Origin: an uncultured Candidatus Saccharibacteria bacterium
Lineage (GTDB): Bacteria; Patescibacteriota; Saccharimonadia; Saccharimonadales; JBBQAJ01
Length of the DNA: 64,000 nucleotides
Direction: 5' to 3'
Assembly: GCA_964597925.1 (NCBI GenBank)
Contig: CAZQZT010000002.1
Span: 103,038 to 167,037, forward strand
The translations under genes were made by a program, and so were the position numbers. The notes below the pieces were generated by a model. That model saw only the letters and a program-made list of their open reading frames with translations. It was not told where the DNA came from and made no database searches. Shown here piece after piece: positions 3,859 to 47,531 of this stretch; position 1 is the first letter of the stretch, and every line of letters starts with the position of its first letter.

Positions 3859-5487
3859 TTAGTTTGTCCCTAGGATAATAATAAAATCCGAATTGCCTGG
3901 GTTAGGGATATTCGGGTCTGGCAATGATGTCACTGCAGTTACTCCTAGACGTTTTTCAAGATAGTGCTTGGTGTATTTTTTCTGACCGTTTCTCATGTCT
4001 ACTAAAACAGTTTTGGTGTAGGTTTTAGTGGGCGCATCGGCTATGGTATTTACGTTATATCCGTAGCTTTTCAGCTCGGTGGCTTTTAGCGTCGCTAATC
4101 CACCTGTTTGAGTACCGTTTAGCACTGCAATTGTGGCGTTTTCGTTGGCAATAAATCCGTCTTTTAAAGCATTTCTGACAAAGTTTTGTATTTCCGAAAA
4201 ATCAGTTAGTCCTGCGCGTGGTTGTTGGATGGACTGGCCAGCAATGTTTACACTAGTAAGAAAATTGTTGGGTGGGTCTACTAGGCCAATTGTCGCGATT
4301 TCGCTAGAGTTAATGCTTTTACCGATTTCGTATAAGCGCATAACTTCATTTATGCTCATGTTTGACTGCACACGATCACCAAAGGCATCCAACAACTGGG
4401 ATACCTTGACGGGGTTAGAGAAAGTCCCGAGTGATAAGATACGATCCTTTAAGGCTACTAGCAGTTTACGCTGGCGTTCTGCGCGATCAAAGTCCCCTCT
4501 AGGACTAGTGTATCGTGAACGAGCATAATAAAGTGCGCGCTGACCATCAAAATGCTGATTGCCTTCTTGAACATTAAGCTTGTAGTTTTTGCCAGTTAGA
4601 GTGTCCCACAATACTTCGTTTACAGTGCCATTTTTATCAACGTTTATGTCGACGCCACCCACTGTATTTATTGCCTGGACAAAGCCGGCAAAATCCACCA
4701 TAACATGATAATGAATTGGGACTCCCAGATCATCTTGTATGACTTTTTCTATGGCAGCAAAGCCGGCGTTTTCGGCATCTTCCTTACTGGCTTTGCGATC
4801 CAGTGCTGCGTATTTTGCCTCCGCAAAGACAGAATTTACACGATAGTTGCTTGTTTTAGGATAGTAAAGATCCCTGGGCACACTTAAAAGTGCGGCTTTT
4901 TTATTAATTGGATCGATGCTTGCAACTAGTATGGTGTCTGTCAAATCCGGCGCTGTTTGACCGTCGCCTCCCCGCCCTAATAGAAGTATATTTACGCGCC
5001 CATCACCCTCACCCCTCAACTTGCTAGGGTCTACATTGTCCTGCAATGCGGCGGCACCTTCGGCCCCGCCTTTAAATATCTGATTTAGCTTTAAGTAGCC
5101 TTTGCCGAATAAAAATCCTACAACCACTACTGCAATTACAGTTATACCAGCCAATCCGCGTAGACCTCTTTTTTTCCAACTGCGACGAGTGCGGTGTTTT
5201 TTGAGTGCAGGCGGTAGCGACAGATCTATTGCGCCATTTGCGCCACGCTTAGGATTCCGACCACTATTAAACGGTTGACTACTTTTCATAACTGGCTGCT
5301 GTGCACCCCTAAAACCTTCTTTGCGGCTGAAGTCATTTAGCTGATTGCGAGTAGAAGACTGACCGATTGCAGTTTGGTCTGGCTGTAAGTTTTGTCTACC
5401 AATATGGGGCTGGCTAGAACCACTGTTCAGCATGCCGTCTACTGAATTATGGGGATGTTTGGTTTTTTTTCTATGAAAATTGTCCAT
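3859..5487 (-). CDS. LytR-CpsA-Psr (LCP) family cell-wall polymer transferase
   Basis: TM anchor followed by LCP motifs (NILLLGRGGDG...DLTDTILVASIDP...LSVPRDLYY...R.RYTSPRGDFDRAERQ). I place the start at the ATG at 5487 (MDNFHRKK), because the longer track ORF (to 5604) would run across the divergent lepB start. Confidence 0.85.
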   Translation of the reverse strand: MDNFHRKKTKHPHNSVDGMLNSGSSQPHIGRQNLQPDQTAIGQSSTRNQLNDFSRKEGFRGAQQPVMKSSQPFNSGRNPKRGANGAIDLSLPPALKKHRTRRSWKKRGLRGLAGITVIAVVVVGFLFGKGYLKLNQIFKGGAEGAAALQDNVDPSKLRGEGDGRVNILLLGRGGDGQTAPDLTDTILVASIDPINKKAALLSVPRDLYYPKTSNYRVNSVFAEAKYAALDRKASKEDAENAGFAAIEKVIQDDLGVPIHYHVMVDFAGFVQAINTVGGVDINVDKNGTVNEVLWDTLTGKNYKLNVQEGNQHFDGQRALYYARSRYTSPRGDFDRAERQRKLLVALKDRILSLGTFSNPVKVSQLLDAFGDRVQSNMSINEVMRLYEIGKSINSSEIATIGLVDPPNNFLTSVNIAGQSIQQPRAGLTDFSEIQNFVRNALKDGFIANENATIAVLNGTQTGGLATLKATELKSYGYNVNTIADAPTKTYTKTVLVDMRNGQKKYTKHYLEKRLGVTAVTSLPDPNIPNPGNSDFIIILGTN

Positions 5488-5586
5488 ATAATATGCGAAT
5501 CCTTTCATTATAGCGGTTATGGTAAATATCTGAAAACCATGTAAATCGTATAACGGTAGTGTCAAACATGTGCAAAGTACGCTATA

Positions 5587-6258
5587 GTGGTTGCAACAAT
5601 GCAACAGCCTTCCAGTATACCAGTTGCGCCGATGAGCGCAAGTGATGAAACAGCTCCTATTATAACTTCAAAACCGCCAAGCAAATGGGGAGGCGCTTTT
5701 TATACTATTGCTATTATAATTGCCGCTCCTTTGGTTGCTCTGACGCTGACGTCTTTTGTATTTCAGTCATACGAGGTAGATGGTCCGAGCATGGAAACTA
5801 CACTTCAAAATCAAGACAGATTGATAGTATGGAAGGCACCCCGCACGCTAGCGAAGATTACTAACCATACATATATACCTGAGCGAAGTGATGTGATTGT
5901 GTTTGTAAAACACGGACTATACGAAAGCCGAGGGTCACAAGAAAAACAACTAATAAAACGAGTGGTAGGACTGCCGGGAGACCGAGTAGTTGTGCAAGAT
6001 GGAAAGATTACTATATATAACACCGAAAATCCAGATGGCTACAATCCCGATTTGAATCAGGAGTTTTCTGAAAACATTGCTAGTGTCACAACCGGAAATG
6101 TAGATATAATTGTAGGCGAAGATGAAGTATTTGTATGCGGAGATAATCGTACTAATTCCCTAGATTCACGTGCTTTTGGCACGGTATCCGCAAACGATAT
6201 TATCGGGAAATTGACGATTAGGATATTCCCTATTAATAATTTCCAATCTTTTATCTAG
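5587..6258 (+). CDS. lepB: signal peptidase I
   Basis: TM anchor; catalytic Ser box (VDGPSMETTL); GDNRTNSLDSR box. The start may be the GTG at 5587 or the ATG at 5599. Confidence 0.9.
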   Translation: MVATMQQPSSIPVAPMSASDETAPIITSKPPSKWGGAFYTIAIIIAAPLVALTLTSFVFQSYEVDGPSMETTLQNQDRLIVWKAPRTLAKITNHTYIPERSDVIVFVKHGLYESRGSQEKQLIKRVVGLPGDRVVVQDGKITIYNTENPDGYNPDLNQEFSENIASVTTGNVDIIVGEDEVFVCGDNRTNSLDSRAFGTVSANDIIGKLTIRIFPINNFQSFI

Positions 6259-7109
6259 GAAAGTTTTTTATAGAGGCTTTTCAGGTCTTCGTCGTTTTTG
6301 AAGTGGATTTCTAATTTGCCACCTTTTGCGGTGTGATGAATAGTGACTTTTTTGTTGAGTTTGGTTGAGAGTTTTTTGGTTTCGGCCGTTTCCTTTACAG
6401 CTCGTTGCTTGACTGCATTTGAAGGTTTTATACCTTCTTTGTGCGCTGTTACGAACTGCTCGGCCTGCCTTACTGACCAAGCTTGTCCCTGTATGAGTTC
6501 AAGTAAACGATTTTGAAGTTCCGGCTGATGCTTTAATGCCAAAATGGCTCGTGCATGTCCTTCGGTAATATGCCCCGTCTGCAACGCTTTACGTGCATTG
6601 TCTGGCAATTGCAGCAAACGCACTATATTGTTTACTGTAGGAGCTGCTTTGCCTAGTTTTTTTGCAATCTGCTGGTAGCTTAGGTTGAACTGCTCATGCA
6701 AATGATGAATTGAAACGGCTTGCTCGAGGGGTGATAAATCGACACGCTGAACGTTTTCTATAAGTGCAATTTCTAGCCTTTGTAGCTCAGCTTTCTCACG
6801 TACAACGGCAGGTATGGTTTTAAGGCCGGCAATTTGTGATGCACGCCATCTGCGTTCACCTGCAATAATTTCAAATCCTTTGCCGTGAGGAGAAACAATG
6901 ATTGGTTGCAAGACACCATGTTCACGAATTGAGTCTGCCAATTCATTCAACGCCGATTGGTCGAACTGCTTTCGCGGTTGGTTTGGATTTGCTGAAATAT
7001 CAGCAATTAATAATTTTTGGATTCGTTCATCATTGCTTAAAATACTTTTGTCGAAATCTGTTGGAAGTAAACTCTCCAAGCCTCTACCCAATCTGTTTGT
7101 GTCAATCAT
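6255..7109 (-). CDS. parB: chromosome partitioning protein ParB/Spo0J
   Basis: ParB box (GERRWRA), HTH region and LIENVQRVDLSPLEQA. I place the start at the ATG at 7109 (MIDTNRLGRGLESLLP, a typical ParB N-terminus), overlapping the parA stop by 8 nt. The 72-aa upstream extension in the track lies inside parA. Confidence 0.9.
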   Translation of the reverse strand: MIDTNRLGRGLESLLPTDFDKSILSNDERIQKLLIADISANPNQPRKQFDQSALNELADSIREHGVLQPIIVSPHGKGFEIIAGERRWRASQIAGLKTIPAVVREKAELQRLEIALIENVQRVDLSPLEQAVSIHHLHEQFNLSYQQIAKKLGKAAPTVNNIVRLLQLPDNARKALQTGHITEGHARAILALKHQPELQNRLLELIQGQAWSVRQAEQFVTAHKEGIKPSNAVKQRAVKETAETKKLSTKLNKKVTIHHTAKGGKLEIHFKNDEDLKSLYKKLS

Positions 7110-7872
7110 TTTGCGCTCCACTGGTTCGCTTAATAACCTCTTTTGTAAATTGTTTGTACGCCCTGGCGCCCTTAGACCATTTGTCGTGTTCAGAAATAGG
7201 TTTGCCATGACTAGGGGCTTCTGCCAGGCGAACATTGCGTGGAATTTGTGTTTTGAAAACGGCCTCATCGAAATATTTTTGCAGCTCACCAACCACTTGT
7301 TCTGCCAGAGACGTGCGACTATCATACATTGTCACTAGAACACCCAGTAAGTTTAGGTTTGGGTTAGTTGATTGTTTAATACGCTGGAACACATCCATTA
7401 GTTGACCAAGTCCTTCCATAGCATAGAATTCTGCCTGAACTGGCACTAACAGCCAATTTGCGGCTGTCAAAGCATTTATAGTTAGTAAACTAAGCGCTGG
7501 GGGGCAGTCTATTAGTATGTAGTCATACTCTAGCCCCTCTAGCCTCGTTTTAAGCAAACTTTCTCTGTTCTCTTGATCTTTAAGTTCGAGTTCAGCCGCA
7601 GCTAGATTGTTGTTTGCAGGCAATAAAGAAATACCAGTCTCTGGAGATACCAGAATGGCGCTATTTGCTTTTGTCAGCCCAAGCATAACCTGATAACTTG
7701 TGTTGTCAAGATTGTCGTCTAATCCCAGTCCACTAGTGGCATTACCTTGAGGATCAAAATCTACAATCAATACTGATTTATCCATTTTTGCCAAATATGC
7801 GGCGAGGTTAATCGTGGTCGTGGTTTTACCTACACCACCCTTCTGATTTAAAATCGCAATGATATGCATCAT
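7102..7872 (-). CDS. parA: chromosome partitioning ATPase ParA/Soj
   Basis: Deviant Walker A (NQKGGVGKTTTTINLA); ParA-type length and order, upstream of parB. Confidence 0.93.
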   Translation of the reverse strand: MMHIIAILNQKGGVGKTTTTINLAAYLAKMDKSVLIVDFDPQGNATSGLGLDDNLDNTSYQVMLGLTKANSAILVSPETGISLLPANNNLAAAELELKDQENRESLLKTRLEGLEYDYILIDCPPALSLLTINALTAANWLLVPVQAEFYAMEGLGQLMDVFQRIKQSTNPNLNLLGVLVTMYDSRTSLAEQVVGELQKYFDEAVFKTQIPRNVRLAEAPSHGKPISEHDKWSKGARAYKQFTKEVIKRTSGAQND

Positions 7873-8068
7873 ATCTGTTTTTTACCCCTACTTGCTAGTA
7901 ACAGCCTATCACGAAACAAGGCTGTCCAGAAGACGTAAATCAAGTTATTTTTATCTGTATGCCTTTAGTCTTAGGTATATAAGCCCAATAGAATGCTCAA
8001 CGTCTACCCTTTTTGGAATATAAACATCCTTGGCAGCCCATTTTTTGTGTCGCTACCTGTAGTTGAGA

Positions 8069-8103
8069 ACGGTGGCGGTGCTATCGCAGTGACGGTGGCG
8101 GTG
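8069..8103. repeat. perfect 12-nt direct repeat ACGGTGGCGGTG x2, period 23 nt, in the parA-distal intergenic region
   Basis: Read directly: 8069-8080 and 8092-8103. A GC-rich island inside an AT-rich 590-bp spacer. Confidence 0.8.
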
Positions 8104-8462
8104 TTAGATGGCTGGCTGCTATTACCGGCAGTATCTCTAGTTATGATGGATCAAACCCCGAATCATACCTAGGCACTAACGAAAAACTCCCACAGACAGT
8201 AATATTTCATAAAAACTGCTTACTAGTATTTGTACAGTCCACTTCCACCCTCAACAAATAACAATGACCCAAATACATTACCAAACTTTCATAGTACACA
8301 TATACTAGTACTAAATGGCTAGTATATAATTGCTAGATAATAATCGTCCAACAATTATCCAAGCAATACAAAATTTGGATGTTATTTACCGCCTTTTGCC
8401 TTAAAAAGTTAACCACAGAGTATTTTGGATGTTTTGTTTTTTGTATTCAAGAAGTCCTCACT

Positions 8463-9050
8463 TTATATAGAAAGGCTGTTTGCCGTCAATTTGAACCGTG
8501 CCTCTAGGGCTTCAAAATCTTCTATCTTTGCCTGCATAGACAGATAGAAGGCTTGGTTTTCATCCTTTAAAACAATGTATAGATCTTGGTGTGCTACCTT
8601 GCCGTCTGTACGAATATAAGTAAAAGATACACGTGCCGCCTGCTTGCCTGACTGGTTAAATTTTTCTTCTGACAGTTTTTTATAGTCCGGATAGCGGTCT
8701 GGTAATACCTTGTCGGTATTGGCCAGTAAAAGATCCATGGTACTGGTTTTTGCCAGCTGAGAAGGCAGTCGAAGTCCTTCTTCGTAACGAAGAGTTATGA
8801 GGTAGGGTGTTTGACCTTCACTGTTGGCTCTAAAGAGAAATTTATCTTCGCTGTCTTGCGTGGTAAGGGTTAGTTGCTTTGCTTCGGCTGGATAGGAAAG
8901 CTTGACTCCCTGCTTGTTGTCTTGGAATTGCTGTAGTGTAGCTGAGCCGTTTGAAGGCGTTTCAGGCGCCTTGGCTAATCTAACCAAGACTAACCAAAGA
9001 ACTAATGCTAAAACCAGTAAAAAAGCTCCTACGATTCCCACACGACGCAT
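8463..9050 (-). CDS. membrane-anchored extracytoplasmic protein, unknown function
   Basis: N-terminal anchor MRRVGIVGAFLLVLALVLWLVLV, then a ~160-aa alpha/beta-looking domain. Lies directly downstream of the giant ORF on the same strand. Confidence 0.6.
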   Translation of the reverse strand: MRRVGIVGAFLLVLALVLWLVLVRLAKAPETPSNGSATLQQFQDNKQGVKLSYPAEAKQLTLTTQDSEDKFLFRANSEGQTPYLITLRYEEGLRLPSQLAKTSTMDLLLANTDKVLPDRYPDYKKLSEEKFNQSGKQAARVSFTYIRTDGKVAHQDLYIVLKDENQAFYLSMQAKIEDFEALEARFKLTANSLSI

Positions 9051-9054
9051 GGAT

Positions 9055-9102
9055 AGTAGTCTAACAGTCCAGTAGTCTAACAGTCCAGTAGTATAGGCTA
9101 GA
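9055..9102. repeat. 16-nt tandem repeat (AGTAGTCTAACAGTCC x2 plus a degenerate third copy) between the giant ORF and the downstream gene
   Basis: Read directly at 9055-9070 and 9071-9086; partial copy at 9087-9102. TAGTATAGG recurs at 9089 and 9111. Confidence 0.8.
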
Positions 9103-9126
9103 CATAGTTCTAGTATAGGTGTTGGT

Positions 9127-12100
9127 TTAGTTGTTTGAGCTGGAGAGGGTTATCCAGCGATCGGACATGTAGATTAGGGTTATTGAATCGTTTGGACCTA
9201 GGGTAATGTTTGCACCACCAGGTAACTGAACCACCCCTGCTGAGTTGGTTATGGTAAAGGTATCATTTGTAGCATCTTGTTCGTTGTTTACTATGATAAG
9301 CATGTCACCATCTTTGGCGCTGGCTTCAGATATTGAAAGGTCTGGCACACCGCCGTTGCCAGTTTCGTCTGCATCCACGCGTACATAGCTGGCAGTTGGT
9401 GCCAGCGTATCGTTAGCTGTGCCGTCGTCTGTTAGATTAAGCGCTTGAACGCCTAGGCCGAGGCGATCTTCGATGAACAGGCTCGCCCCAGTACCAGTCA
9501 GCTCTACGCGGTCATCTGTTAATTCGTCATAGCCAAGGTATGCATCTTGATCTATTCCAAGCACCAAGCCAAGGCCATCGCCTAGATATATTGCATCTAG
9601 TTCGTATGCTGCTGAACCAAGAGTTATGCCTTCGGCTGTGCTTGGCAAAATATCTCCACTACTGGTAATACCGACTACTGCAACTATCTTTCCGGAGGCA
9701 TTTACTTGGAAAGCGTCCGCCGTACCTGCGAATAAGGTTCCAGATACATCTAGGTTGCCGGCTATGTTGGTGTTGTCCTGCAGGTTTATGGTGGTGCTGG
9801 CGTTGATGTTTAGCGTGGTTGTACTGGTTATATTTCCGCCATTGACGGCCAAATCGCCCGATAGCGTCGCAATAGCACCGGTGAAATTGTCACTCCCAAT
9901 ATCTATTGCGCCAAAACCATTACTGATTGAGCCGGCATTCAGAACGCCCGTACCAGTGATGGCTGTCGCTACCCCGTCATTGGTGTCGACCAGTGCAACA
10001 TCATGATTGTTCAGCAGACCTAGTTCAGTTGCATTGAGTGTCATACCCATGATGTCAAAGATATTTGTGTAACCCCCTGTTATACCGCTATTCGTAACAG
10101 TTAGAACACTTGAAATTGCCGTGCCAGTTTCTGCGTTATCAACCTCAATTACGTTATCTAGGCCTTGGTTGTGAGCGGAACTATTAATCTGTCTGATATA
10201 GATACCTCGAGTATTAGCATTGTTAGCAGTTGGTGTGGTATCTATGGCAATAATACCCAACGCGCTCGTACCAGTTGTTGTGTCGATATCGATGTTTTCG
10301 GTTGCGGCAAAGACATAATTCACCGTTGTACCAAAATTGATGGCAGTCGCGTTAGTTGCGCCGATATTTATGCTACCCACGGTACCACTAGCAGTCCCAA
10401 CATCTATGTTTATGTTACCCGAGTTACCGGATCCTCCGCCACTGGCGTTGCCACTCTTCAGTGTTAGATTAGCTGAGCTGATATTGGTCGTTTGGTTAAG
10501 GGTCTGTATGGTTTTGGTGCCGTCACTGAAACCAGCGGTACTGCCGAGGTTGATCGTAGACGTAGCATTGGCCCCAAGGTTGATTGTGGTGGCTGCGCCA
10601 AAGGCGTTTATAGTCGTAGAAGTAGTGTTGAACAGAACACCCATAATTTGATTGGTAGCAATAGTGCCGGAGTTAGCGTTGATTTGTCCAGACGTGGTGA
10701 TGACACCCGCGCCGGTAATACTCCACTCTGCGTCATTGAGTATGAGGTTTGAGCCCGAACTTGCCCCAATATTGATACCTAACGGACTATTGATGGTTCC
10801 GATGTTAATAGAACCTGAACTATCAAAGGTATTATCTCCAACATTTATATTTATATCTCCACTGGTCCCACCGGTGCTACCATCACCTGAAAGGAGCGAT
10901 ACGCTACCACCGACACCGCAACCGAAAAAACATGGTGCAATATCACCTTGAATTATGATGCTTTTGCCAGCACCACCGCCACCCTTTATGGTTGCAGTAC
11001 CGCTGCCATAAAAAGTTAGCCCACTGCCATCTAGGGTCGAATTTCCAGCCGTTATTGTAGGTGCATATATTGTCCCAATAGAGTTTATAGAAGTTAGGAC
11101 AGTACCATTTGCGTCCACAACCTCTAGAGCAAAACCAGAAAGTTTTTGTATTGTTAGAGACGCATAACCTACGTCGTCTCCTGTTAAGTATAGGTTTCCG
11201 TTTGATACTGCACCGTATCTCGGTGAAATTGCAACAAGGCCGTTATTTTGCACATAAACTTGTGGGACAGTATCTTTGACCAATTGCGCTCCCCACGCCG
11301 CAACGGTAGTACTACTGTTTGGTAGGATAATTTTTGGTGTGACGGCTGAAACACCCCCAGAGGTATTTTGGGTTACATAAAATCTCTGCCAGGTAGTGGT
11401 AGCAGTAAACGAACTAGCAGTACCTGTTACTGGTGAACCACCCGTGGTGTCGATACGTAAGTTTACGGTTGCTGTGCCACTGTTGGTCTTTACCCAAACA
11501 CTAAAAGTGTAGTTACCAGTTATGGAAGTTGCGTAGGTCTGTGCAAGCGTGCCGTTTATAGAAGTCGAGACCAACTTTTCGGCTGAAGTTTGACCATTTG
11601 GTGCAGGGTTGGAGCCACTATCATCCCCCGTGACAGTTAAGTTTGTAGTTGACCAGAGGGGCGAATCGTCTAGAGACTCACTTTGAGATATGAGGTTACT
11701 ATAAGAACCAAATCCACCGTTCGGCGTGCTTAATGAACCTATCGATTCTTGGTTACCTGCCGCATCAACACCTAATAGTTTTGAACCAAGAGAATTTGTT
11801 AGCTGGAAAAGGTCAGCAGTCTGTGAAGTAGCGCCCTGGATAACACCACCCACACTGCTTGCACTGGCGCTCTGGATTTTGAAGTTAGCGCTACTCTGGG
11901 TACTTGTACCGTTTTGGATATAGCCCGCAGCACCGGTAGATGCGGCGTAGCCACTACAGACGCTACCAGTGCTACATAGTGTGCCTGTTTCATTTGGCAG
12001 TGTCAGCGTGAGGCCTGCGCCAGGAGTAGTTGGTCCCCGTAGTGTAATACCATTTGCGCTACCGCTAGCGTAGAACAGTATTGAGCCAATATTCCCATTG

Positions 12101-15100
12101 GCTGTACCAAGACTGAGGGAATTTGAACCCTGTATAGAAGCTGTTCCTGCGATAGCCAAGCCAGCAAAACTAGGGCTCGCAACAGTATTGATATTTTGTA
12201 TGGTATTGACACTGTAAGCTCCGTTGGGGCCACCATCAGACACATTGAAGTTAGTACCATTAAAGCTCAGTGTACGCTCTGCGCTCAAGCCTGCTTCTGG
12301 CGCAAAAGTGAAATACTCTGCATTCGTCGGTGCATTGCCTCCACCAGAACCAGAACAGTTTTGCAGGGCAAACAGACAAAAATCGTCGGAGGCGCCCGCA
12401 TCAGGGATGGTATAGGTGTAATCGCCTGTTGTAGGAGCTACAACTATCGTAGCCGTATTACTGCTTCCGTCGCTAATTATGAGAGAACCGGCTTGCAGGG
12501 CTGCGCCCAAAGTAGCCGAACCGCCTTGAACAATCAGGCCTACACTAGTGGTTACGTTGACACCGTCATCAGTTAGGGTTGAATCCCCTACAGTTGAACC
12601 AGTAGAGGTGAATTTGGCTATTTGGTTATTGGTGCCAGCGCCAGTTACGCCACCGCCAGAGCCTGCACAGTTACCTAGATTCTCTAGACACAAAGTGTCA
12701 TTACCGCCAGCATCGGGTAATAAAACCGCATAGTTACTTGTTGGTGCTGCAAAATTAAGCGTTGCCGTAAACCCAGCATCTGTAACAGAAAGGCTGCTAG
12801 ACGCATTGCCTTGAATTGTGATGACTTGGCCGGTAGCACCTATAGTAAGAGCACCACTCGGCGTAATGGCCGTAAGAGCAGTCAGAGATGTAATGTCACT
12901 GTTGGCTCCACTTGCGGCAGCAGACAGGTTACTCCTAGCACTCGTAGCGTCAAGTGCACCAGTACCACCGTTCAGCACTGGCAATATACCGGTTACTTCT
13001 GTTGTGAGGTTAATGTCTGTTCCTAGTGTCGTCTGTAGAGCGCCACCAGATATTTGCAGGCCAGTCCCCGTAAGGTCGGTGAAAGCATCACTGTTAAAGG
13101 TAAACGCATCACCTGCTTGGACAGTTAGTCCACCATTGAGACTGGTAAGCCCCGTTACGCTAAATGTACTAGCAGCAGTAGTTGGGCCATTCAGACTAAC
13201 TGCACCCGCACCTGTTCCAAAGGTGCCCGCACCTGTTTGAATGAAGCTGCTGGTTACGGTGGTTGCGCCATCCAAACTGACTGCACCCGTACCTGTGCTA
13301 AACGTGTTTGTACCTGTCTGATTGAAATCAGCGTTCAAAGTCACATCGCCGTTTAGTGTCGTGTTCCCCGTGCCGGTAGTGAAAGTGCCTGAACCCGTTT
13401 GAATGAAGTCCGTGTTATTTAGTAGATTTAAGATACGGCTTGTGCTGTCAACTGCTACTAAGCTCGTTCCGGCTGCGTTGGTAACGTTGAGCGCCTGCGT
13501 ATTATCTGTCCAAGTGCGAATGACAACATTGTCGCTACGAATATTAATATCTCCATCTGTTCCAGTGCCGTCTCGTCGGCCAGTTTCTATATTTAGAGTG
13601 CCCCCATTTCCGTTACCACCGGCTCCTGCGGCACCGCTGAGAAGCGTTAAAGTACCACCCGTACCAGTGCCATTTCCTTCGGCACCCTTAACCCTAAGAA
13701 TCCCCCCGTTGGCGTTCAGGGTAGTTGGCTTCAGCTGGTTTATGGTTCTAGTAATTCCTGAGTTACCACCAAATGATAAATCACCAAACGTCGCGTCACT
13801 AGCGGGCGTGCTGCTGCCTGAGGATACACCTATTTTGCCAGTTACCTGTAGTGCTAAACCGGTATTGGTGCCGTTGTTTATATCTAGCACACCCCCAGTA
13901 AGGGCTGAACTCGAGTTTCTAAAAGTGTAAAGATATTCGCTGTTAGGCACCGCAACAGTAGCCGTGTCTTGAATGATTTTGGATAAATATCTACCGTCGT
14001 TCCCGGTGGAACAAGGCGATGAGTTTGAAGTTGTGCATATGACACCGCTTTCTGTGGGCAGAGTTAGTATATAATTGCCCGTCACACCTGAGCCTATAAG
14101 AGACTGTAGAGTAATACTCCCTCCGCCATCGTACGCGAATTGCAGCTGTCCTAAGTTATCTGTTCCAGAAGTCCCAATGCTACCAATTTGCACTTTATTG
14201 CCTACTGTCTGATGAAGTCGCACATCGTCTACGTAGAAATTCACGCCGCTTGCTTCTGCCGAATTCGTTCTTCGAACGTGAATATTGTGTGAAGGATGGG
14301 TAATATTTGTAGTAAAGCTACAGACAAATTGACTCCATCTTGGCGCCGCGGTGCTACCTTGGGTGGCTTTACTGATCGTACAATCAAGGGCGAACTGTCC
14401 ACCACCCAGTAATTGGTGCCCTATAACTATATCGTTTATGCTTGGAGTACCTACCTCGGCCATAATCCACATCGATAGCACATACGACGAATTTACTTGT
14501 GTGATGACTGGTATGGTTGCGCCATCTCCTGTGTTATTTGTAGTGGTAACTCTCATGGAACGCGAACCAGTGTGTACGTATTGAACATCTGAATTTGTAT
14601 TAATATCTGGCGTACCTGCTTGTGCTGGGTACTCTTGGGTCACCCAGCTAACTGGATCTACCCCCGGTGTGTCGGACTCAAATGTTCCATTGTTTATTAG
14701 GTTTGTGTACGTGTCGTATACGGTACTGACATTGAGTACCGAATTGCTGGCGGAATTTTGCACTTGGAAGACATTGGTTGAGTCTACTGTGCTTCTGAAC
14801 AATCCGTTACCAAAAGCTGAGAGGTTGCCTGCAACTGAAATAGTATTGCCCGACTGCGTAAGCAGAGAATCCCCTATCACGTCTGCGCTCGTGAACATTG
14901 GAATGGTTCCTGGTGTACCACCAGCTGTGGTTACACTAGAACCAGCACCTGATGACTCATCATTGGTACACAAAACCTGACCGAGGTTGTTGGTAGTCAG
15001 CGAGCCGCCATTTAGGAAAACCGTACAGTTGATGGGCAGCGTAAGCGTGCCGCCGATGTTAAGGTTGCCGCTCAAAGTGGCGCTGGCAAACGTTGGCGAG

Positions 15101-15852
15101 CTGGTTATGCCAATGTCTTGTGGAGTAGAAAGTGTGATAACTCCGTTACTATTGGTAACGATTATTTGATTCCCTGTACCTTGTAGGGTAATTCCGCCAA
15201 TCATGCCGTTGAGTAAGCTTGAGGCCGGTACATCATCTGGCTGGTTGATGAGACCAACGACCGCAGCAAGATCTTCGTTGGTCACGAGGTCACAGTTGTT
15301 GGTGCTCAAACAAAAAGTGCCCGAAGCATTCGGAAGTGTGTAGGTTTGGTTAGCCGTTAGAGTTTCTGTACTTAGGGTTCCTGCGAAACCGCTGTTTACA
15401 ACCTTCAGGCTACCGCTTGTAATAATGTCTCCATTTACAAAAAGTGAGCTTTTTGCACCCTTTATCTCCGCCGGTAAATCTGCAATCTCTGCATCTTTTA
15501 GAGATAGGTCTTGAGTTTGAATAACTGATTGACCATTTTGCTGGGCTTTGGGTGCTTTGCGAGCCAAAATAAGTATACTTGCCCCTGTAAATAGTGTCAC
15601 TACGAGCGCTATGGCTATAGAAACTATCACAGCTTTACGGTGAGAAAATGGCAGGAGTTTAGCGTGAGGAGTGTATTGGCTTGCCTGTGCTGCAGTACCT
15701 TGCTCATGAACTTCGAGATCTTCAATGGGATAGTTCTTTTGCGGCAAACCGTACTGGGCTACGAACGGCTGAGTCGTAGTTGACGCGGCCTTAACCGAAG
15801 TTACAGTATCGGGATTATTAGAATTATCAGCTTTGAGCTGAGAGTTATCCAT
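9127..15852 (-). CDS. giant (2,241 aa) single-pass membrane-anchored fibrous surface protein; putative adhesin / host-recognition fibre
   Basis: Uninterrupted 6.7-kb ORF. About 73 aa of N-terminus, then one TM (AVIVSIAIALVVTLFTGASILILA), then a T/S/G/N/A-rich ectodomain with internal repeats, two jelly-roll/CBM-like modules and tail-fibre-like motifs. All antisense ORFs in the track are short composition artefacts. Confidence 0.85.
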   Translation of the reverse strand: MDNSQLKADNSNNPDTVTSVKAASTTTQPFVAQYGLPQKNYPIEDLEVHEQGTAAQASQYTPHAKLLPFSHRKAVIVSIAIALVVTLFTGASILILARKAPKAQQNGQSVIQTQDLSLKDAEIADLPAEIKGAKSSLFVNGDIITSGSLKVVNSGFAGTLSTETLTANQTYTLPNASGTFCLSTNNCDLVTNEDLAAVVGLINQPDDVPASSLLNGMIGGITLQGTGNQIIVTNSNGVITLSTPQDIGITSSPTFASATLSGNLNIGGTLTLPINCTVFLNGGSLTTNNLGQVLCTNDESSGAGSSVTTAGGTPGTIPMFTSADVIGDSLLTQSGNTISVAGNLSAFGNGLFRSTVDSTNVFQVQNSASNSVLNVSTVYDTYTNLINNGTFESDTPGVDPVSWVTQEYPAQAGTPDINTNSDVQYVHTGSRSMRVTTTNNTGDGATIPVITQVNSSYVLSMWIMAEVGTPSINDIVIGHQLLGGGQFALDCTISKATQGSTAAPRWSQFVCSFTTNITHPSHNIHVRRTNSAEASGVNFYVDDVRLHQTVGNKVQIGSIGTSGTDNLGQLQFAYDGGGSITLQSLIGSGVTGNYILTLPTESGVICTTSNSSPCSTGNDGRYLSKIIQDTATVAVPNSEYLYTFRNSSSALTGGVLDINNGTNTGLALQVTGKIGVSSGSSTPASDATFGDLSFGGNSGITRTINQLKPTTLNANGGILRVKGAEGNGTGTGGTLTLLSGAAGAGGNGNGGTLNIETGRRDGTGTDGDINIRSDNVVIRTWTDNTQALNVTNAAGTSLVAVDSTSRILNLLNNTDFIQTGSGTFTTGTGNTTLNGDVTLNADFNQTGTNTFSTGTGAVSLDGATTVTSSFIQTGAGTFGTGAGAVSLNGPTTAASTFSVTGLTSLNGGLTVQAGDAFTFNSDAFTDLTGTGLQISGGALQTTLGTDINLTTEVTGILPVLNGGTGALDATSARSNLSAAASGANSDITSLTALTAITPSGALTIGATGQVITIQGNASSSLSVTDAGFTATLNFAAPTSNYAVLLPDAGGNDTLCLENLGNCAGSGGGVTGAGTNNQIAKFTSTGSTVGDSTLTDDGVNVTTSVGLIVQGGSATLGAALQAGSLIISDGSSNTATIVVAPTTGDYTYTIPDAGASDDFCLFALQNCSGSGGGNAPTNAEYFTFAPEAGLSAERTLSFNGTNFNVSDGGPNGAYSVNTIQNINTVASPSFAGLAIAGTASIQGSNSLSLGTANGNIGSILFYASGSANGITLRGPTTPGAGLTLTLPNETGTLCSTGSVCSGYAASTGAAGYIQNGTSTQSSANFKIQSASASSVGGVIQGATSQTADLFQLTNSLGSKLLGVDAAGNQESIGSLSTPNGGFGSYSNLISQSESLDDSPLWSTTNLTVTGDDSGSNPAPNGQTSAEKLVSTSINGTLAQTYATSITGNYTFSVWVKTNSGTATVNLRIDTTGGSPVTGTASSFTATTTWQRFYVTQNTSGGVSAVTPKIILPNSSTTVAAWGAQLVKDTVPQVYVQNNGLVAISPRYGAVSNGNLYLTGDDVGYASLTIQKLSGFALEVVDANGTVLTSINSIGTIYAPTITAGNSTLDGSGLTFYGSGTATIKGGGGAGKSIIIQGDIAPCFFGCGVGGSVSLLSGDGSTGGTSGDININVGDNTFDSSGSINIGTINSPLGINIGASSGSNLILNDAEWSITGAGVITTSGQINANSGTIATNQIMGVLFNTTSTTINAFGAATTINLGANATSTINLGSTAGFSDGTKTIQTLNQTTNISSANLTLKSGNASGGGSGNSGNINIDVGTASGTVGSINIGATNATAINFGTTVNYVFAATENIDIDTTTGTSALGIIAIDTTPTANNANTRGIYIRQINSSAHNQGLDNVIEVDNAETGTAISSVLTVTNSGITGGYTNIFDIMGMTLNATELGLLNNHDVALVDTNDGVATAITGTGVLNAGSISNGFGAIDIGSDNFTGAIATLSGDLAVNGGNITSTTTLNINASTTINLQDNTNIAGNLDVSGTLFAGTADAFQVNASGKIVAVVGITSSGDILPSTAEGITLGSAAYELDAIYLGDGLGLVLGIDQDAYLGYDELTDDRVELTGTGASLFIEDRLGLGVQALNLTDDGTANDTLAPTASYVRVDADETGNGGVPDLSISEASAKDGDMLIIVNNEQDATNDTFTITNSAGVVQLPGGANITLGPNDSITLIYMSDRWITLSSSNN

Positions 15853-16043: not shown

Positions 16044-16865
16044 TTAGACCCATAGAATCGCATAGACGGCAGCCAAGCCAACCAACATAACAGCCAGAGC
16101 AATGAAGACAACTCTGATCATTTCAGCCCTTATAATTTTGCGCGCTAGCGGGTTGCGCCCTAGCGCAGTCATGGCACTAGATATGGCGCCGTAAATAATT
16201 GCACCTTCAGCAATTAGTACTATTACAAAAATAATCAGTGCAATCAGTACGCGTGCTTCGCCCACGTCTTTGCCAACTATGGTGCGTCCTAGACGTGCTA
16301 GCGCTGAATCACTTTCTGTGCCGGCATTTGCGCTTCCCTGTTGATTGAGATTTAGGGTGACTTTAGCGATTTGAGTTTGTTTGGTTTGACCTGCGTCTGT
16401 GTAGTTATACGGTGACGGATTTGACGGAGCATCCCCAGCAACACCAATAACCGTAGCCGCAAGCTCACTTGATTTCATGAGTATTCCTTTGAGCGGAGAA
16501 AGTACCAGCAAGTCCCCCCTTGCAACACCTCCGTTTATGTCGCTCACATAAGCTTGAACCTGACCCTCGCTTTCTACTAACACATTCGATGATTCGGATC
16601 CAACAGTAACAAAACTATTTTCTACAGTTGTAACAACTCCAACCACTCTGGTGCTGGAATCTTGAGTAGCACGCTCTACCCCTGAATCAGTTGAACCGTC
16701 AGCACTAAGCGCAACTACCATCCCCGTCTGAAGACCGCTGTCGATGGTAGTGTAGCCGCGAGCAATTGCCAAGACAGAAGCCTGAAATAATAAAAGTGCC
16801 ATCAGTGACAAGCCAGCAATTAGGCCCCCGAACAGTTTGATATTTCGTACTTCTCTTCGTCTCAT
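16044..16865 (-). CDS. secreted/membrane protein with a C-terminal two-helix membrane hairpin, unknown function
   Basis: I place the start at the ATG at 16865 (MRRREVRNIKLFGGLIAGLSLMALLLFQASVLA, a signal-like sequence). Central ~170-aa soluble domain. C-terminal hairpin ...LIAEGAIIYGAISSAMTALGRNPLARKIIRAEMIRVVFIALAVMLVGLAAVYAILWV. Confidence 0.6.
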   Translation of the reverse strand: MRRREVRNIKLFGGLIAGLSLMALLLFQASVLAIARGYTTIDSGLQTGMVVALSADGSTDSGVERATQDSSTRVVGVVTTVENSFVTVGSESSNVLVESEGQVQAYVSDINGGVARGDLLVLSPLKGILMKSSELAATVIGVAGDAPSNPSPYNYTDAGQTKQTQIAKVTLNLNQQGSANAGTESDSALARLGRTIVGKDVGEARVLIALIIFVIVLIAEGAIIYGAISSAMTALGRNPLARKIIRAEMIRVVFIALAVMLVGLAAVYAILWV

Positions 16866-16989
16866 GCCAGCCATTATCGTTATGTTTGTTGCTAGTATGA
16901 CGGCATTTACTCCGTAAAACAAGCGTTTAGCATTTAAAAACACCTTAGCGCAAATCAACCATACAATAGTGCTTAAGGTGAACTAGATT

Positions 16990-39731: not shown

Positions 39732-39737
39732 TATAAT

Positions 39738-39850
39738 TTGGCACCGTGCTATTTTCCCAGGGTTAAAACCCAAGTATTGTAACCGCTGCGAGGCTTAACT
39801 GCTGTGTTCGGCATGGGAACAGGTGTTTCCCTCGCGCCATGGGCACCAAA
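39738..39850 (-). rRNA. rrf: 5S rRNA
   Basis: Reverse complement reads UUUGGUGCCCAUGGCGCGAGGGAAACACCUGUUCCCAUGCCGAACACAGCAGUUAAGC...GGGAAAAUAGCACGGUGCCAAA. Confidence 0.93.
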
Positions 39851-40070
39851 TTCTGCGTCTCGATGGCGCAGAATTTGGTATTCTACACCTTAGGCGCTCG
39901 TTTGATGCTCAGGCTTATACCATATGTGATATAGAGCTAAATTAGCTTAATACCATCTATGATATATTGCACGTGATTTTGAGATTTTAAGGTAAACGGG
40001 TGGTGATTTAGAACCACCAATAACTAGTCAATGCACTTACTCAGAGAAGGCTCGCGCCTTGTCTGAGTTC

Positions 40071-43295
<3,225 letters not shown>

Positions 43296-43540
43296 CGATA
43301 TTGTGCATCGACTAGTTATTGGTAATTCCAATTTCTTTGCCGTTTGCCTTATCGAACGATTACATACGTTCCATTACGTACATAACCGTATCTATTCTCA
43401 AAATTTGAATCTAATTGTTAAGTTACAAAACTCAAGGAGGCCCAAATACATTACTGTCCTAACCCTGATAACTTGAGTTTATGCTGAAAGTCTGCAGGTC
43501 AATCCTTACAACTTCGTGCTTAAACTCAAGTAGTTGCAAT

Positions 43541-43569
43541 ATCTTATCACCAATAACAGGGGCGGTCAA
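43541..43569 (-). promoter_or_regulatory. candidate sigma-70-type promoter for 23S-5S
   Basis: Minus strand: TTGACC (43564-43569), 17 nt, TAAGAT (43541-43546). About 240 nt upstream of the 23S 5' end. Confidence 0.4.
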
Positions 43570-43658
43570 GCATATTCTGATGTCAAACTTGCTACGCTTT
43601 TACAGTTTAGAAGGAACTAATAAGTACCTAAACTAGCGTAGCAAGTTCTCTGTTATGC

Positions 43659-45401
43659 TTATTTTGTAGTTAGAACGACTAAATTTGAAGCAACTGACTT
43701 GTTGTTGCTTGTATCGACAGCCTGGATGTAATAGGTGTATTTAGTCTTGCGGGCAACGTTTGTATCTGTATATGTCAGACTCGTAGTCTTGGCATAGAGG
43801 ATGCCGTTTCGATATACCCAGTATTCTTTTACGGCTACGTTATCTTTGCTAGCGGTCCAGGTAAGCTTTGGCTTACCGTTCTGTAATCCTCCAGATAGTA
43901 CTGATGCTGTTGGAGCAGTAGTGTCAGTCGGAGACGTAAGTGTACCTAGCGCACGATTCAAGTTTGGCAGAGGACCAATGTTGCCACTCAACGTACCAGC
44001 GCTGGTGTTTTGCAAAGTTCCGGTTTGAATCAAAGTGCTGCGTATTTGTGCAGGAGTCAGTAGTTTACCTGGGTTGAGCGTTTTATATGCAGAGCTTAGC
44101 GATGCTATCGCTGAAGCTACAATTGGAGCAGCCGAACTTGTGCCATTGAAGTTTGATGTATATGCACCATTTGGTGTGGTACCTGCTTCTAATGCACCAT
44201 AACCAGCCGTTGTTACACATTCTCCATGACCTTGTAGTTCAACACGTGATCCATAATTGCTAAAGTACAATCGAGCATTTAGCGGTGCGGCACAAGCAGA
44301 ACCCGCGCCAGCAATCACTGAACCAGAGCTAACTTTGCCCATAGGAAACGTTGTGCCCCATACAGCAGTATCGTCTAGGTTATGACCGCTGTTAGCTGCT
44401 GCCTGTACAACGTTTATGCCGCTATCTGTCAGTGCTTTTATGGCGTCATATATAGCTGGCTCCCATTCAACCGGTGCATAGCCGCCTACGCTTGATGGAG
44501 CCCATGTTTGCTGTTCAATAAGCACTACGTCGCCAGGTACAGCTCGAGTAGCAGCAGTCTGCAGTGCACCCACTATATCCCAGCCACGTTCTTGATTGTA
44601 GGTATTAACTCGTGACAATGCCGCCCCACTAACTGCGCCAGTTACGCCCGTGCTATTATCTGTAGCAACTATCTCGCCCAACACTGCCGTACCGTGGTTG
44701 GAGTCATTAAAAGGATCTGCCGGAGTTCCGTTATTTAGATTGCTACCGACGGCTTTTGCTAAATCTTCATGACTAGCGTTCCAGCTGTATTCTAGATCAA
44801 TTACACGAACCGCACTACCGTTTCCGCCAGGAATAGTTTTGGCATAGGCAGAGTCAATCCCATAGGGGCTGGCGTTTAGGTATTTCTGCAAACTAGTGTA
44901 GTTGTTTACAGTAGGAGCTGGAGCGGGCTTGGATTGTGGATATACAGTTTCCACGCTGTCCAATAATGCAATCTTACCGACAAGTGCTTGTATGTTGTCA
45001 CTTGGCTTAACTTTAACTACAAAATAGTCGTCAAGATTACTGGCTAGTTTCTTACTATAAGCAGTTTCTGGTTCGCTACTTTGACCCACTAGTTTTTCTA
45101 GCTTTTGCTTGCCGGCATCATTTAGAACCTTGTTTAGGTTGCTGGCTTTGGCTTGAGACTTGGTGGTTTTTGGTTTGAAGTTGCTGGACTGGTCTATTTC
45201 CAGCTGCGCGGTATCTTTTAGCTTAACTATCAGACTATCATTGCGATATTTCTGACTGTCAGAATAATCATTGTTTGGACTTGAACCAGCGCCAACAGCG
45301 CTACCGGAACCGAACAGATTAGTAGCGACCAATAGTGTTGCCAGAAACGTCGATAGAACAGATACCGGAACTTTACCAAAACGTGTATTTCGTAACTTCA
45401 A
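43659..45401 (-). CDS. secreted subtilisin-family (S8) serine protease with propeptide-like N-region and C-terminal FN3-like domain
   Basis: Signal peptide (MKLRNTRFGKVPVSVLSTFLATLLVATNLFG). Catalytic D (VRVIDLEYSW), H (SNHGTAVLGEIVA), N (AAANSGHN), S (NGTSSAAPIVAS). C-terminal beta-sandwich (KPKLTWTASKDNVAVKEYWVYRNG...YTYYIQAVDTSNN). TTG start with SD GGUGAGG. Confidence 0.9.
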   Translation of the reverse strand: MKLRNTRFGKVPVSVLSTFLATLLVATNLFGSGSAVGAGSSPNNDYSDSQKYRNDSLIVKLKDTAQLEIDQSSNFKPKTTKSQAKASNLNKVLNDAGKQKLEKLVGQSSEPETAYSKKLASNLDDYFVVKVKPSDNIQALVGKIALLDSVETVYPQSKPAPAPTVNNYTSLQKYLNASPYGIDSAYAKTIPGGNGSAVRVIDLEYSWNASHEDLAKAVGSNLNNGTPADPFNDSNHGTAVLGEIVATDNSTGVTGAVSGAALSRVNTYNQERGWDIVGALQTAATRAVPGDVVLIEQQTWAPSSVGGYAPVEWEPAIYDAIKALTDSGINVVQAAANSGHNLDDTAVWGTTFPMGKVSSGSVIAGAGSACAAPLNARLYFSNYGSRVELQGHGECVTTAGYGALEAGTTPNGAYTSNFNGTSSAAPIVASAIASLSSAYKTLNPGKLLTPAQIRSTLIQTGTLQNTSAGTLSGNIGPLPNLNRALGTLTSPTDTTAPTASVLSGGLQNGKPKLTWTASKDNVAVKEYWVYRNGILYAKTTSLTYTDTNVARKTKYTYYIQAVDTSNNKSVASNLVVLTTK

Positions 45402-45427
45402 ATCAAATACCTCACCTTTACAGCGCC

Positions 45428-45456
45428 ATTATACCACCTACTATTGAATTTGTCAA
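45428..45456 (-). promoter_or_regulatory. perfect consensus sigma-70 promoter of the protease gene
   Basis: Minus strand: TTGACA (45451-45456), 17 nt, TATAAT (45428-45433). About 27 nt upstream of the TTG start. Confidence 0.75.
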
Positions 45457-45473
45457 CTACTACGTTTTGTGTC

Positions 45474-45501
45474 TATAAAAAACCCACCTTTCGGTGGATT
45501 C
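45474..45501 (-). terminator. rho-independent terminator directly after tRNA-Ala
   Basis: Minus strand: AAUCCACC-GAAA-GGUGGGUU followed by UUUUUAUAG. Confidence 0.7.
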
Positions 45502-45507
45502 TTTATT

Positions 45508-45584
45508 TGGTGGAGCAACAGGGACTCGAACCCTGGACCCCCTACTTGCAAAGCAGGTGCTCTAGCCAACTGAGCTATTGCCCC
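45508..45584 (-). tRNA. tRNA-Ala (UGC), CCA encoded
   Basis: Reverse complement: GGGGCAATAGCTCAGTTGGCTAGAGCACCTGCTTTGCAAGTAGGGGGTCCAGGGTTCGAGTCCCTGTTGCTCCACCA. G3:U70 present. Confidence 0.95.
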
Positions 45585-45661
45585 AAAGTGTATTTTCCAT
45601 AGGAGACTCAAGTCTCCTTAGAAAACATTATACTTTTGCTTCGCAAAAGTGAAATGTATTC

Positions 45662-45980: not shown

Positions 45981-47531
<1,551 letters not shown>

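Follow-up and report, generated by a model that had tools for sequence, protein, structure and literature searches.

A GTA/phage head-spike-fiber-type CBM4/9-like module within a predicted giant surface fiber of a Candidatus Saccharibacteria-like bacterium

The window, meaning the whole stretch of 64,000 nucleotides that was analyzed, carries RNase P, ParA/ParB, IleRS, a class II RNR, NrdR and FtsZ in addition to a full rRNA operon. Its 16S gene lies at 45983-47533. Judged by protein relatives and synteny, the carrier bacterium is Candidatus Saccharibacteria-like (Patescibacteria). A giant open reading frame lies in the order IleRS-L21-ORF~290-GIANT-ORF~195-ParA-ParB. Its 2241-aa product, found in exactly this form on 9 public contigs, is rich in Thr, Gly, Ser, Ala and Asn and is predicted to be a membrane-anchored surface fiber. 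The features of the locus are as follows.

9127..15852, minus strand: giant ORF, 2241 aa (ORF list, translation, composition)
15562..15621, minus strand: N-terminal transmembrane/signal-anchor helix, aa 78-97, SIAIALVVTLFTGASILILA (predicted from sequence)
14182..14745, minus strand: module 1, CBM_4_9 (CenC-like) β-sandwich, aa 370-557 (Pfam, AF2, Foldseek)
12877..13011, minus strand: short phage tail-fiber-like motif (LPVLNGGTGA...), aa 948-992 (phrog_11393)
11719..11919, minus strand: "YIQNGTS..ANF" linker unit directly preceding module 2, aa 1312-1378 (tblastn alignments)
11236..11718, minus strand: module 2, GTA/phage head-spike-fiber-type CBM4/9-like β-sandwich, aa 1379-1539 (NF048003, A1 profile, AF2, Foldseek)
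9154..9327, minus strand: C-terminal segment with weak similarity to a phage depolymerase C-terminal β-sandwich, aa 2176-2233 (Pfam PF25692)

The predicted anchor coincides with a Kyte-Doolittle 19-mer mean of 2.58 at aa 79, and two orthologs (P0009 and P0010) have an equivalent hydrophobic N-terminal feature at aa 81. The motif at aa 948-992 matches phrog_11393, "tail fiber protein," in PHROGs (E 4.5e-10). Relatives have the linker together with module 2, some of them in repeated form; in tblastn alignments its aa 1312-1372 aligned both alone and jointly with module 2 (L003-L029). The C-terminal ~200 aa are conserved, with 49-66% identity to orthologs L002 and L018.

The peptide singled out in the initial annotation as a second jelly-roll module occurs in the translation, where NLISQSESLDD starts at aa 1386 (window position 11697) and AAWGAQLVKD ends at aa 1527 (window position 11272). 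Its placement at aa ~1385-1525 was correct, whereas the interval given for it, 11275-11700, codes on the minus strand, the plus-strand frame being filled with stops. The boundaries obtained from the profile and the structural model slightly exceed the quoted peptide, at aa 1379-1539 (window positions 11236-11718).

The consensus derived from 140 domain copies reads NLL.ySE.F..a.W...n.TvTAn...APdGt.TAd.l...Q....YTFSVWLK..SGT..v.Lr.....T...TTtWQRfSVT...I....vyAWGAQLE.g..p.vY..T. The pattern given in the initial annotation (W..v..aPdGt.tAd.l..g.yt.SvyvK..W.R) is the true consensus of the family, and the match is far above chance. Nearly invariant family residues are N8, W22, P40, W110, R112, W142-G-A-Q and Y155. 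An exhaustive HMMER search retrieved 1108 representative proteins at E<=1e-3 (181 at E<=1e-10). The NCBIfam model NF048003, "phage head spike fiber domain," matched module 2 with 68.3 bits (cut-off 36, E 1.2e-18), over profile positions 5-176 of 182 and query aa 1383-1539.

Since a single-sequence phmmer search of module 2 against the PDB gave no significant match (best E 0.42, filamin), a family profile was needed for this comparison. The profile, A1, was built on 42 module-2-type sequences, and module 2 scores 164 bits with it (aa 1380-1537). Among PDB sequences, A1 matched 6tb9 chain F3 (Rcc01080) at E 2.5e-19, with profile positions 4-154 aligned to residues 83-265; this entry resolves only residues 2-10 of Rcc01080, and the subfamily is without an experimental RcGTA structure (PMC7296036). 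The profile also matched the phage baseplate/structural proteins gp45 and gp46 at about 1e-7, Rhodothermus CBM4-2 at E 4e-6 and Thermotoga CBM4 at 3e-3. Within the family, phrog_5939 "tail protein" is matched by 29 of the 42 A1 members and Pfam CBM_4_9 by 17 of the 42 at E<=0.01 (best 1.2e-8). Module 2 itself scores 20.0-20.4 bits with CBM_4_9 (PF02018), under the gathering score of 25.9. Single-sequence searching of PHROGs gave no match to module 2, and a word-indexed homolog search returned two matches for module 2 (short proteins only for the profile) and none for module 1.

The AF2 model of module 2 (pLDDT 94.7, pTM 0.90) is all-β, with 10 strands occupying aa 1401-1525, which bears out the jelly-roll proposed earlier. 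Foldseek searches of the PDB returned, at probability 1.00 and TM 0.55-0.64, CBM4-2, CBM16, CBM22 and CBM61 modules as well as the CBM-like domains of the CBA120 TSP4 and Klebsiella K2-2 tailspikes; for 3jxs, 4bj0, 2zey, 4xup and 2xom the TM was 0.59-0.64, also at probability 1.00. In BFVD, the matching proteins (TM 0.74-0.78, 24-31% identity) were phage proteins annotated as tail or as "CenC-like carbohydrate-binding," among them tail proteins of uncultured phages. Profile and structure searches with module 2 both led to phage and CBM families, with a β-sandwich superposable on CBM4/16/22. In fold and family, module 2 is almost certainly a β-sandwich of the CBM4/9 (galactose-binding-domain-like) superfamily, of ~160 residues and belonging to the NF048003 subfamily. 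Its resemblance to a lectin-like domain holds in the sense of a lectin/CBM-like family of phage and GTA fibers, as seen in the NF048003 score above cut-off, the Rcc01080 match, the PHROG tail-protein matches and the BFVD superpositions. Because module 2 falls within a curated family, this domain call is routine.

Module 1 (NLINNGTFESD...VDDVRLHQ, aa 384-548) is present as well, and is a canonical CBM_4_9 domain (aa 370-557) with 29.4 bits against PF02018, above the cut-off of 25.9. Its AF2 model (pLDDT 76.8, pTM 0.78) matched CBM22, CBM16 and CBM4-2 in Foldseek, and the two modules have PDB fold neighbors in common. They are non-identical, as had been said of them: module 1 is canonical, whereas module 2 stays below the PF02018 cut-off. 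Whether they are also paralogous has a divided answer. Profile-profile alignment (hhalign) of A1 with the module-1-type family A4 gave 97.35% and E 1.6e-11 over 146 columns, A4 being an independent set of 14 sequences used after another set, A3, was dropped for containing two sequences retrieved by the module-2 motif. Comparing the two modules directly was unsuccessful, with a pairwise BLASTP E of 0.14 and an hhalign probability of 3.3% when the lone module-1 sequence was used, and recent tandem paralogs were rejected for this reason. The relationship holds at the level of superfamily homologs, and the profile comparison identifies modules 1 and 2 as remote homologs, not recent duplicates.

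The distribution of the domain was examined with a genome-collection scan, for which the tighter A2 alignment was used, A1 being too diverse; the whole giant protein as query retrieved no relatives in this collection. The copies closest to module 2 have 43-62% identity, and every one of them comes from a Saccharibacteria/Patescibacteria MAG, embedded in an open frame of 970 to >4000 aa, whereas viral copies reach 24-44% identity at most. The pairing of both CBM types recurs in 11 of 150 relatives, at least two module-2-type copies are present in 55 of the 150, and arrays of this domain reach 5 copies per protein. Within the orthologous group, the conserved core is made up of both termini and, between them, the linker with module 2. 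Module 1 and the long intervening repeats are lineage-specific additions in this group, and module content is therefore shuffled among relatives.

The genomic context speaks to whether this fiber is cellular or viral. The initial annotation had likened the segment to domains of phage fiber proteins, and a phage or prophage tail-fiber gene with module 2 as receptor-binding domain would fit the phage-type domain family and the tail-fiber motif at aa 948-992. However, the neighbors of the giant gene are housekeeping genes (L21, IleRS, ParA, ParB, LytR, signal peptidase), with no phage genes among them. The same gene order recurs in two other Saccharibacteria genomes, on one MAG contig of 773 kb and another of 88 kb, and the syntenic orthologs in Saccharibacteria MAGs have 1860 aa and 2069 aa. 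The GC content of the gene (47.7%) is close to that of its neighbors (42.5-46.4%), and the viral copies of module 2 are far more distant than the Saccharibacteria ones. Given its chromosomal location, the N-terminal transmembrane helix of its product and the synteny seen across Saccharibacteria genomes, the phage identity of the gene does not stand and can be considered effectively refuted. A prophage origin was likewise ruled out by gene context and synteny. The giant protein is very likely a cellular surface protein.

In the mechanism proposed here, the giant protein would project from the cell as a long fiber, on which module 2, and probably also module 1, may bind surface polysaccharide. 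The likeliest target would be glycans in the envelope or capsule of the bacterium hosting the episymbiont, and such binding could provide adhesion or host recognition. Bipartite receptor recognition, which the initial annotation took two non-identical modules in one fiber to suggest, would be a hypothetical feature of such binding. We consider this whole explanation, a CBM-like module binding host glycans from a membrane-anchored Saccharibacteria fiber, to be reasonably probable. Taken by itself, glycan-binding adhesion as the putative function of the giant protein is a proposition on which the analysis leaves us evenly poised.

Module 2 might instead bind nothing external, serving as a structural spacer or oligomerization knob, or might bind the cell's own envelope or EPS in a self-anchoring, S-layer-like coat. 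Residues W69 and F110 of CBM4-2 are ligand-stacking aromatics. The positions of module 2 aligned to them are non-aromatic, although the binding face may differ between the two domains. These non-aromatic positions agree with a spacer or self-anchoring role, as does the resemblance of the nearly invariant residues to core or framework positions. Moreover, among the orthologs module 2 is part of what is conserved and not of what varies, so that a structural role fits equally with a binding role. Nevertheless, the nearest characterized relative, the RcGTA head fiber, binds capsule polysaccharide, the fold neighbors are overwhelmingly glycan-binding modules, and arrays of up to 5 domains per protein are typical of avidity-based lectins. 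With these points on the other side, we regard a spacer or self-anchoring role as unlikely, though deserving of some weight.

It is also conceivable that module 2 is a targeting CBM for an enzyme in the same protein that, like a phage tailspike, degrades the capsule or cell wall of the host. One such arrangement would be a depolymerase-like β-helix at aa ~1550-2170 with a depolymerase-type sandwich C-terminal to it. In the PDB, the best Foldseek matches of module 2 are indeed CBM-like domains inside tailspike depolymerases (CBA120 TSP4, K2-2 TSP, Kp7 gp52), aa 2176-2233 weakly match PF25692 (Phage_depo_C; 23.1 bits, E 1e-4), and adhesion or degradation is the role that Wang et al. propose for proteins of this kind (PMC10633639). 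The Phage_depo_C score is, however, below its cut-off of 25. In addition, no catalytic family was detected in any 320-aa slice of the giant protein with Pfam, PHROGs and NCBIfam, and a sequence search of the PDB with the last 714 aa gave nothing at E<=1. We therefore hold an enzyme-targeting role, including the β-helix arrangement given as its example, to be improbable, and retain host-glycan binding by a surface fiber as the preferred explanation.

The domain family of module 2 is already curated, and the mildly interesting part is the protein that carries it. Apart from type IV pili, little is known of how ultrasmall episymbiotic Patescibacteria recognize their hosts and stay attached to them (PMC11623550). 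The single Saccharibacterium studied genetically depends on glycan-binding envelope proteins, which are essential (PMC10633639), and our literature searches found no publication on this protein family in Saccharibacteria and nothing specific on giant or tail-fiber-like proteins there. A conserved syntenic giant fiber with interchangeable phage-type carbohydrate-binding modules is a candidate host-range determinant. More tentatively, a Saccharibacteria clade might keep, at one fixed place in the chromosome beside parAB, a giant membrane-anchored fiber built from phage receptor-binding parts, with its CBM content swapped between lineages. The parts in question, in a list that is equally speculative, would be the tail-fiber motif, the GTA/phage head-spike-fiber CBM, the CenC-type CBM and the depolymerase-like C-terminus. 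If true, such a fiber would be a cellular, phage-fiber-like determinant of the host bacteria open to attachment by the episymbiont.

Among known systems, the type protein of NF048003 is the RcGTA head spike fiber Rcc01080 (GhsB), which places it in the same curated family as module 2; the two have in common the motifs NLL.SE.F..W, APdGt.TAd, YT.S.W.K, W.R and WGAQLE. Rcc01080 is a 325-aa virion protein whose N-terminal Leu-Gly repeat plugs into a capsid pentamer (PMC7296036), and RcGTA head fibers attach the particles to capsular polysaccharide (PMC7296036, PMC10218006). Module 2, in contrast, lies inside a membrane-anchored cellular protein of 2241 aa from another phylum, and its identity is no higher than about 30%. 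It lies outside any virion structural protein; location in a virion defines the type protein Rcc01080 and not the domain model.

The CBM4 modules of Rhodothermus marinus Xyn10A (CBM4-2, PDB 1K42/3JXS) and Thermotoga Lam16A (1GUI) have the same fold as module 2 at a TM of about 0.6, and the CBM4-2 motifs APEG, YTYTIWARA and TTEWQPF align with those of module 2 (profile E 4e-6). Module 2 differs in ending in WGAQLE where canonical CBM_4_9 has fYvDDv.l, in having non-aromatic residues at the positions aligned to W69 and F110 of CBM4-2, and in having no recognizable glycoside hydrolase attached.

The fold is also common to CBM-like domains of phage tail and tailspike proteins (CBA120 TSP4, Klebsiella K2-2 TSP, Cyanophage S-TIM54 virion structural protein), and the sequence family to the tail proteins of PHROGs 5939, 34853 and 22177. 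On viral contigs, the domain is found in tail proteins adjoining tail assembly or tail fiber genes, whereas module 2 is chromosomal and membrane-anchored, with 24-44% identity to these copies. The giant protein shares modules with phage fibers, namely, the phrog_11393 motif, module 2 and the weak Phage_depo_C similarity, but its gene stands outside a phage structural cluster.

Among Saccharibacteria, Southlakia epibionticum requires envelope proteins that carry polysaccharide-binding domains for its epibiotic growth, and host glycans have been proposed as their targets (PMC10633639). Like the predicted giant fiber, these are Saccharibacteria surface proteins with glycan-binding modules; they carry VCBS, dockerin or FN3 domains, and the likeness to the giant protein is one of description.

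The segment under study, module 2 (aa ~1379-1539), is encoded on the minus strand, the plus-strand reading of window 11275-11700 being interrupted by stops throughout. Translation recovered the peptide of the initial annotation at the residue numbers given there, within the giant ORF. The features of this ORF and its surroundings are as follows:

Window 9127..15852, minus strand: giant ORF, 2241 aa in one uninterrupted frame (ORF list, translation)
Window 11272-11697, minus strand: flagged peptide, NLISQSESLDD from aa 1386, AAWGAQLVKD up to aa 1527
aa 384-548 of the giant ORF, minus strand: peptide of module 1 (aa 370-557), NLINNGTFESD...VDDVRLHQ (translation)
Window 12877-13011, minus strand, aa 948-992: tail-fibre motif LPVLNGGTGA...ARSNL, phrog_11393 'tail fiber protein', E 4.5e-10
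Window 9154-9327, minus strand, aa 2176-2233: sub-threshold Phage_depo_C match (Pfam, 23.1 bits versus 25, E 1e-4)
Window 16044-16958, minus strand: ORF beside the giant gene, 304 aa, without Pfam match
Window 8463-9050, minus strand: ORF beside the giant gene, 195 aa, without Pfam match

The giant protein consists mainly of Thr, Gly, Ser, Ala and Asn and is membrane-anchored, with a single strongly hydrophobic stretch at aa 78-97. Inspection of the translation by eye revealed a recurring unit with paired cysteines, '...Y.LTLP...G..C......C.G(S)GGG' (e.g., aa ~170-190, ~610-625, ~1080-1095, ~1165-1180 and ~1300-1310), which suggests repeated disulfide-stapled segments punctuating the fibre.

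Searched as a single sequence, module 2 scored 20 bits against Pfam CBM_4_9, under the cut-off of 25.9, and E 0.019 against BppA domain 1 (Pfam), and had no match in PHROGs or among PDB sequences. By contrast, it clears the cut-off of NCBIfam NF048003 ('GTA_spike_fiber / phage head spike fiber domain-containing protein'), scoring 68.3 bits where 36 are required (E 1.2e-18) and aligning with positions 5-176 of the 182-position profile. When 1.84 billion representative proteins were searched exhaustively with HMMER, a large family emerged: 1108 of them reach E<=1e-3 and 181 reach E<=1e-10, many holding 2-5 copies of the domain. The consensus of 140 domain copies, NLL.ySE.F..a.W...n.TvTAn...APdGt.TAd.l...Q....YTFSVWLK..SGT..v.Lr....T...TTtWQRfSVT...I....vyAWGAQLE.g..p.vY..T, showed that the pattern first likened to phage tail proteins is that of a real family.

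The family profile (A1, 42 sequences) matched, among PDB sequences, the RcGTA head spike fibre Rcc01080 (E 2.5e-19), the phage structural/baseplate proteins gp45 and gp46 (about 1e-7), Rhodothermus Xyn10A CBM4-2 (E 4e-6) and Thermotoga Lam16A CBM4 (E 3e-3). Pfam CBM_4_9 was matched by 17 of the 42 members and phrog_5939 'tail protein' by 29. The AlphaFold2 model obtained with the family alignment is all-beta with ten strands (pLDDT 94.7, pTM 0.90). Its Foldseek neighbours in the PDB are CBM4-2, CBM16, CBM22, CBM61 and CBM11 modules and the CBM-like domains of the tailspikes CBA120 TSP4, Klebsiella K2-2 TSP and Kp7 gp52; those in BFVD are uncultured-phage 'CenC-like carbohydrate-binding' and 'tail protein' entries and Synechococcus phage S-CAM8 (TM 0.74-0.78, identity 24-31%). 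Module 2 belongs to the known curated family NF048003 within the CBM4/9 superfamily, and these matches bear out the jelly-roll fold and the phage-fibre resemblance first proposed. Only head-fibre residues 2-10 are resolved in the RcGTA entry 6tb9 (PMC7296036), which thus provides the module 2 subfamily with a sequence and not with an experimental structure.

Module 1 scores above the CBM_4_9 cut-off (29.4 bits), and its model (pLDDT 76.8) shares the PDB neighbours CBM22, CBM16, CBM4-2, CBM61 and CBA120 TSP4 with module 2 (Foldseek). Two non-identical CBM-like modules are present in one protein, as had been noted. Their pairwise similarity was not detectable by BLASTP (E 0.14), and hhalign of the module 2 family against one module 1 sequence gave 3.3% probability; a recent tandem duplication was therefore rejected. 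An earlier module-1-type alignment (A3) was dropped because two rows had come via a module 2 motif. Profile-profile comparison of the module 2 family with an independent 14-sequence alignment drawn from other giant relatives (A4) aligned the two from one end to the other across 146 columns (97.35% probability, E 1.6e-11), with these motif pairs (module 1 type, then module 2 type):

NL..N..FE with NLL.ySE.F
YT.SF.a with YTFSVWLK
TT.WTRF.CTF with TTtWQRFSVT
fYvD.v.L with vyAWGAQLE

Judged from these profiles, the modules are remote homologues in one superfamily and not recent duplicates; of the paralogy raised in the initial annotation, superfamily homology stood and recent paralogy fell.

When GTDB species genomes were searched with a tight alignment of the domain, 46 loci were recovered; their distribution is biased, since the search patterns were built from Saccharibacteria-like sequences. 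The best 29 of the 46 are in MAGs (down to E 2e-17, 35-62% identity), most titled Candidatus Saccharibacteria, Saccharimonadia or Saccharimonadales, others Patescibacteria group, Doudnabacteria or Uhrbacteria, and two without a phylum name; the more distant loci include Planctomycetia and Alphaproteobacteria (Acidisoma, Acidisphaera). At each of the 15 loci examined, the open frame that holds the domain is between 970 and more than 4000 aa long. Mixed architectures are seen repeatedly: of the 150 best relatives, 55 have at least two module-2-type copies and 11 have both module types (e.g., P0021, M2-M1-M1, and P0012, M2-M2-M1-M1). A hydrophobic segment at the N-terminus is present in 44 of the 150, and many of those without it are fragments.

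The gene order around the giant gene is kept at two Saccharibacteria loci, L002 (773-kb contig; 1860-aa protein, the same length as the relative P0009) and L018 (2069-aa protein), whose orthologues align with the giant protein as follows:

aa 1-260, N-terminus: 32-43% identity
aa 1236-1614 (L002) and aa 1362-1595 (L018), linker and module 2: 37-56% identity
aa 2031-2241, C-terminus: 49-66% identity

Module 1 and the long-repeat region have no counterpart in these orthologues when aligned to the window protein; module 2 is therefore part of the conserved core and module 1 a lineage-specific addition. Both flanking ORFs are kept in position at L002 and L018 (38-67% identity) and might function together with the giant protein. 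Locus L008 of a Candidatus Saccharimonadia MAG (JBGPNM010000009.1, open frame 4423-11763) has IleRS upstream and encodes a relative of ~2420 aa in which the module order of the window protein is inverted: a single module-2-type domain precedes two module-1-type CBM_4_9 domains. This arrangement shows that modules are shuffled among the giant proteins.

The domain also occurs in viral contigs, in tail proteins adjoining tail-assembly or tail-fibre genes, and among isolated phages a single-sequence search matched a 'virion structural protein' of Cyanophage S-TIM54. Because the viral copies are only 24-44% identical, the copies in Saccharibacteria were not acquired recently from phages. The DNA of the window is cellular: it carries a complete 16S-tRNAIle-tRNAAla-23S-5S operon, RNase P RNA, and genes for ParA, ParB, LytR-CpsA-Psr, IleRS, class II ribonucleotide reductase, NrdR and FtsZ. 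Nine public contigs carry the identical giant protein; on one of them, Logan SRR8670881_6659, the called gene order is IleRS, L21, 276-aa ORF, giant gene, 195-aa ORF, ParA, ParB and signal peptidase. No phage genes were seen among the called genes flanking the giant gene, and its GC content (47.7%) is near that of its neighbours. This copy is not a phage protein, and a prophage fibre is effectively refuted by this housekeeping context and the synteny within Saccharibacteria.

Within the rRNA operon (window 39736-47533, minus strand), the interval from tRNA-Ala to the 23S rRNA holds a 580-aa ORF (43659-45401) in the same orientation, which matches Pfam Peptidase_S8 (E 2e-17). The 23S model is 2925 nt long but its match covers 3226 nt, and so includes ~300 nt of extra sequence.

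On a less likely reading, module 2 would be the targeting CBM of a depolymerase-like activity hidden in the C-terminal half of the protein. The sub-threshold match to Phage_depo_C, the C-terminal beta-sandwich of phage depolymerases, falls in the C-terminal ~200 aa conserved among orthologues; however, no catalytic domain was found in the giant protein by Pfam, NCBIfam, PHROGs or, for the last 714 aa, PDB-sequence searches. The modules might also be purely structural, or bind the bacterium's own envelope. In the profile alignment, the positions that correspond to the ligand-cleft aromatics of CBM4-2 are not aromatic in module 2, whose binding face may differ.

We infer that the giant protein would form a long fibre at the cell surface and attach to polysaccharide through its CBM-like modules. 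Three points underlie this: nearly all the structural neighbours bind glycans; capsular polysaccharide is bound by the RcGTA head fibre (PMC7296036; PMC10218006); and a Saccharibacterium amenable to genetics needs, for its epibiotic growth, envelope proteins that carry polysaccharide-binding domains and for which host glycans were the proposed target (PMC10633639). The bipartite receptor recognition proposed in the initial annotation is a conjecture. A tentative and rather doubtful extension is that the giant protein, derived from phage parts and swapping its modules, determines host recognition by episymbionts.

In the limited collection of literature searched, no description of this giant protein family in Saccharibacteria was found. 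The type protein of the domain family, the RcGTA head fibre, is a virion fibre, whereas the protein described here is a giant, transmembrane-anchored and chromosomally syntenic protein of Saccharibacteria.
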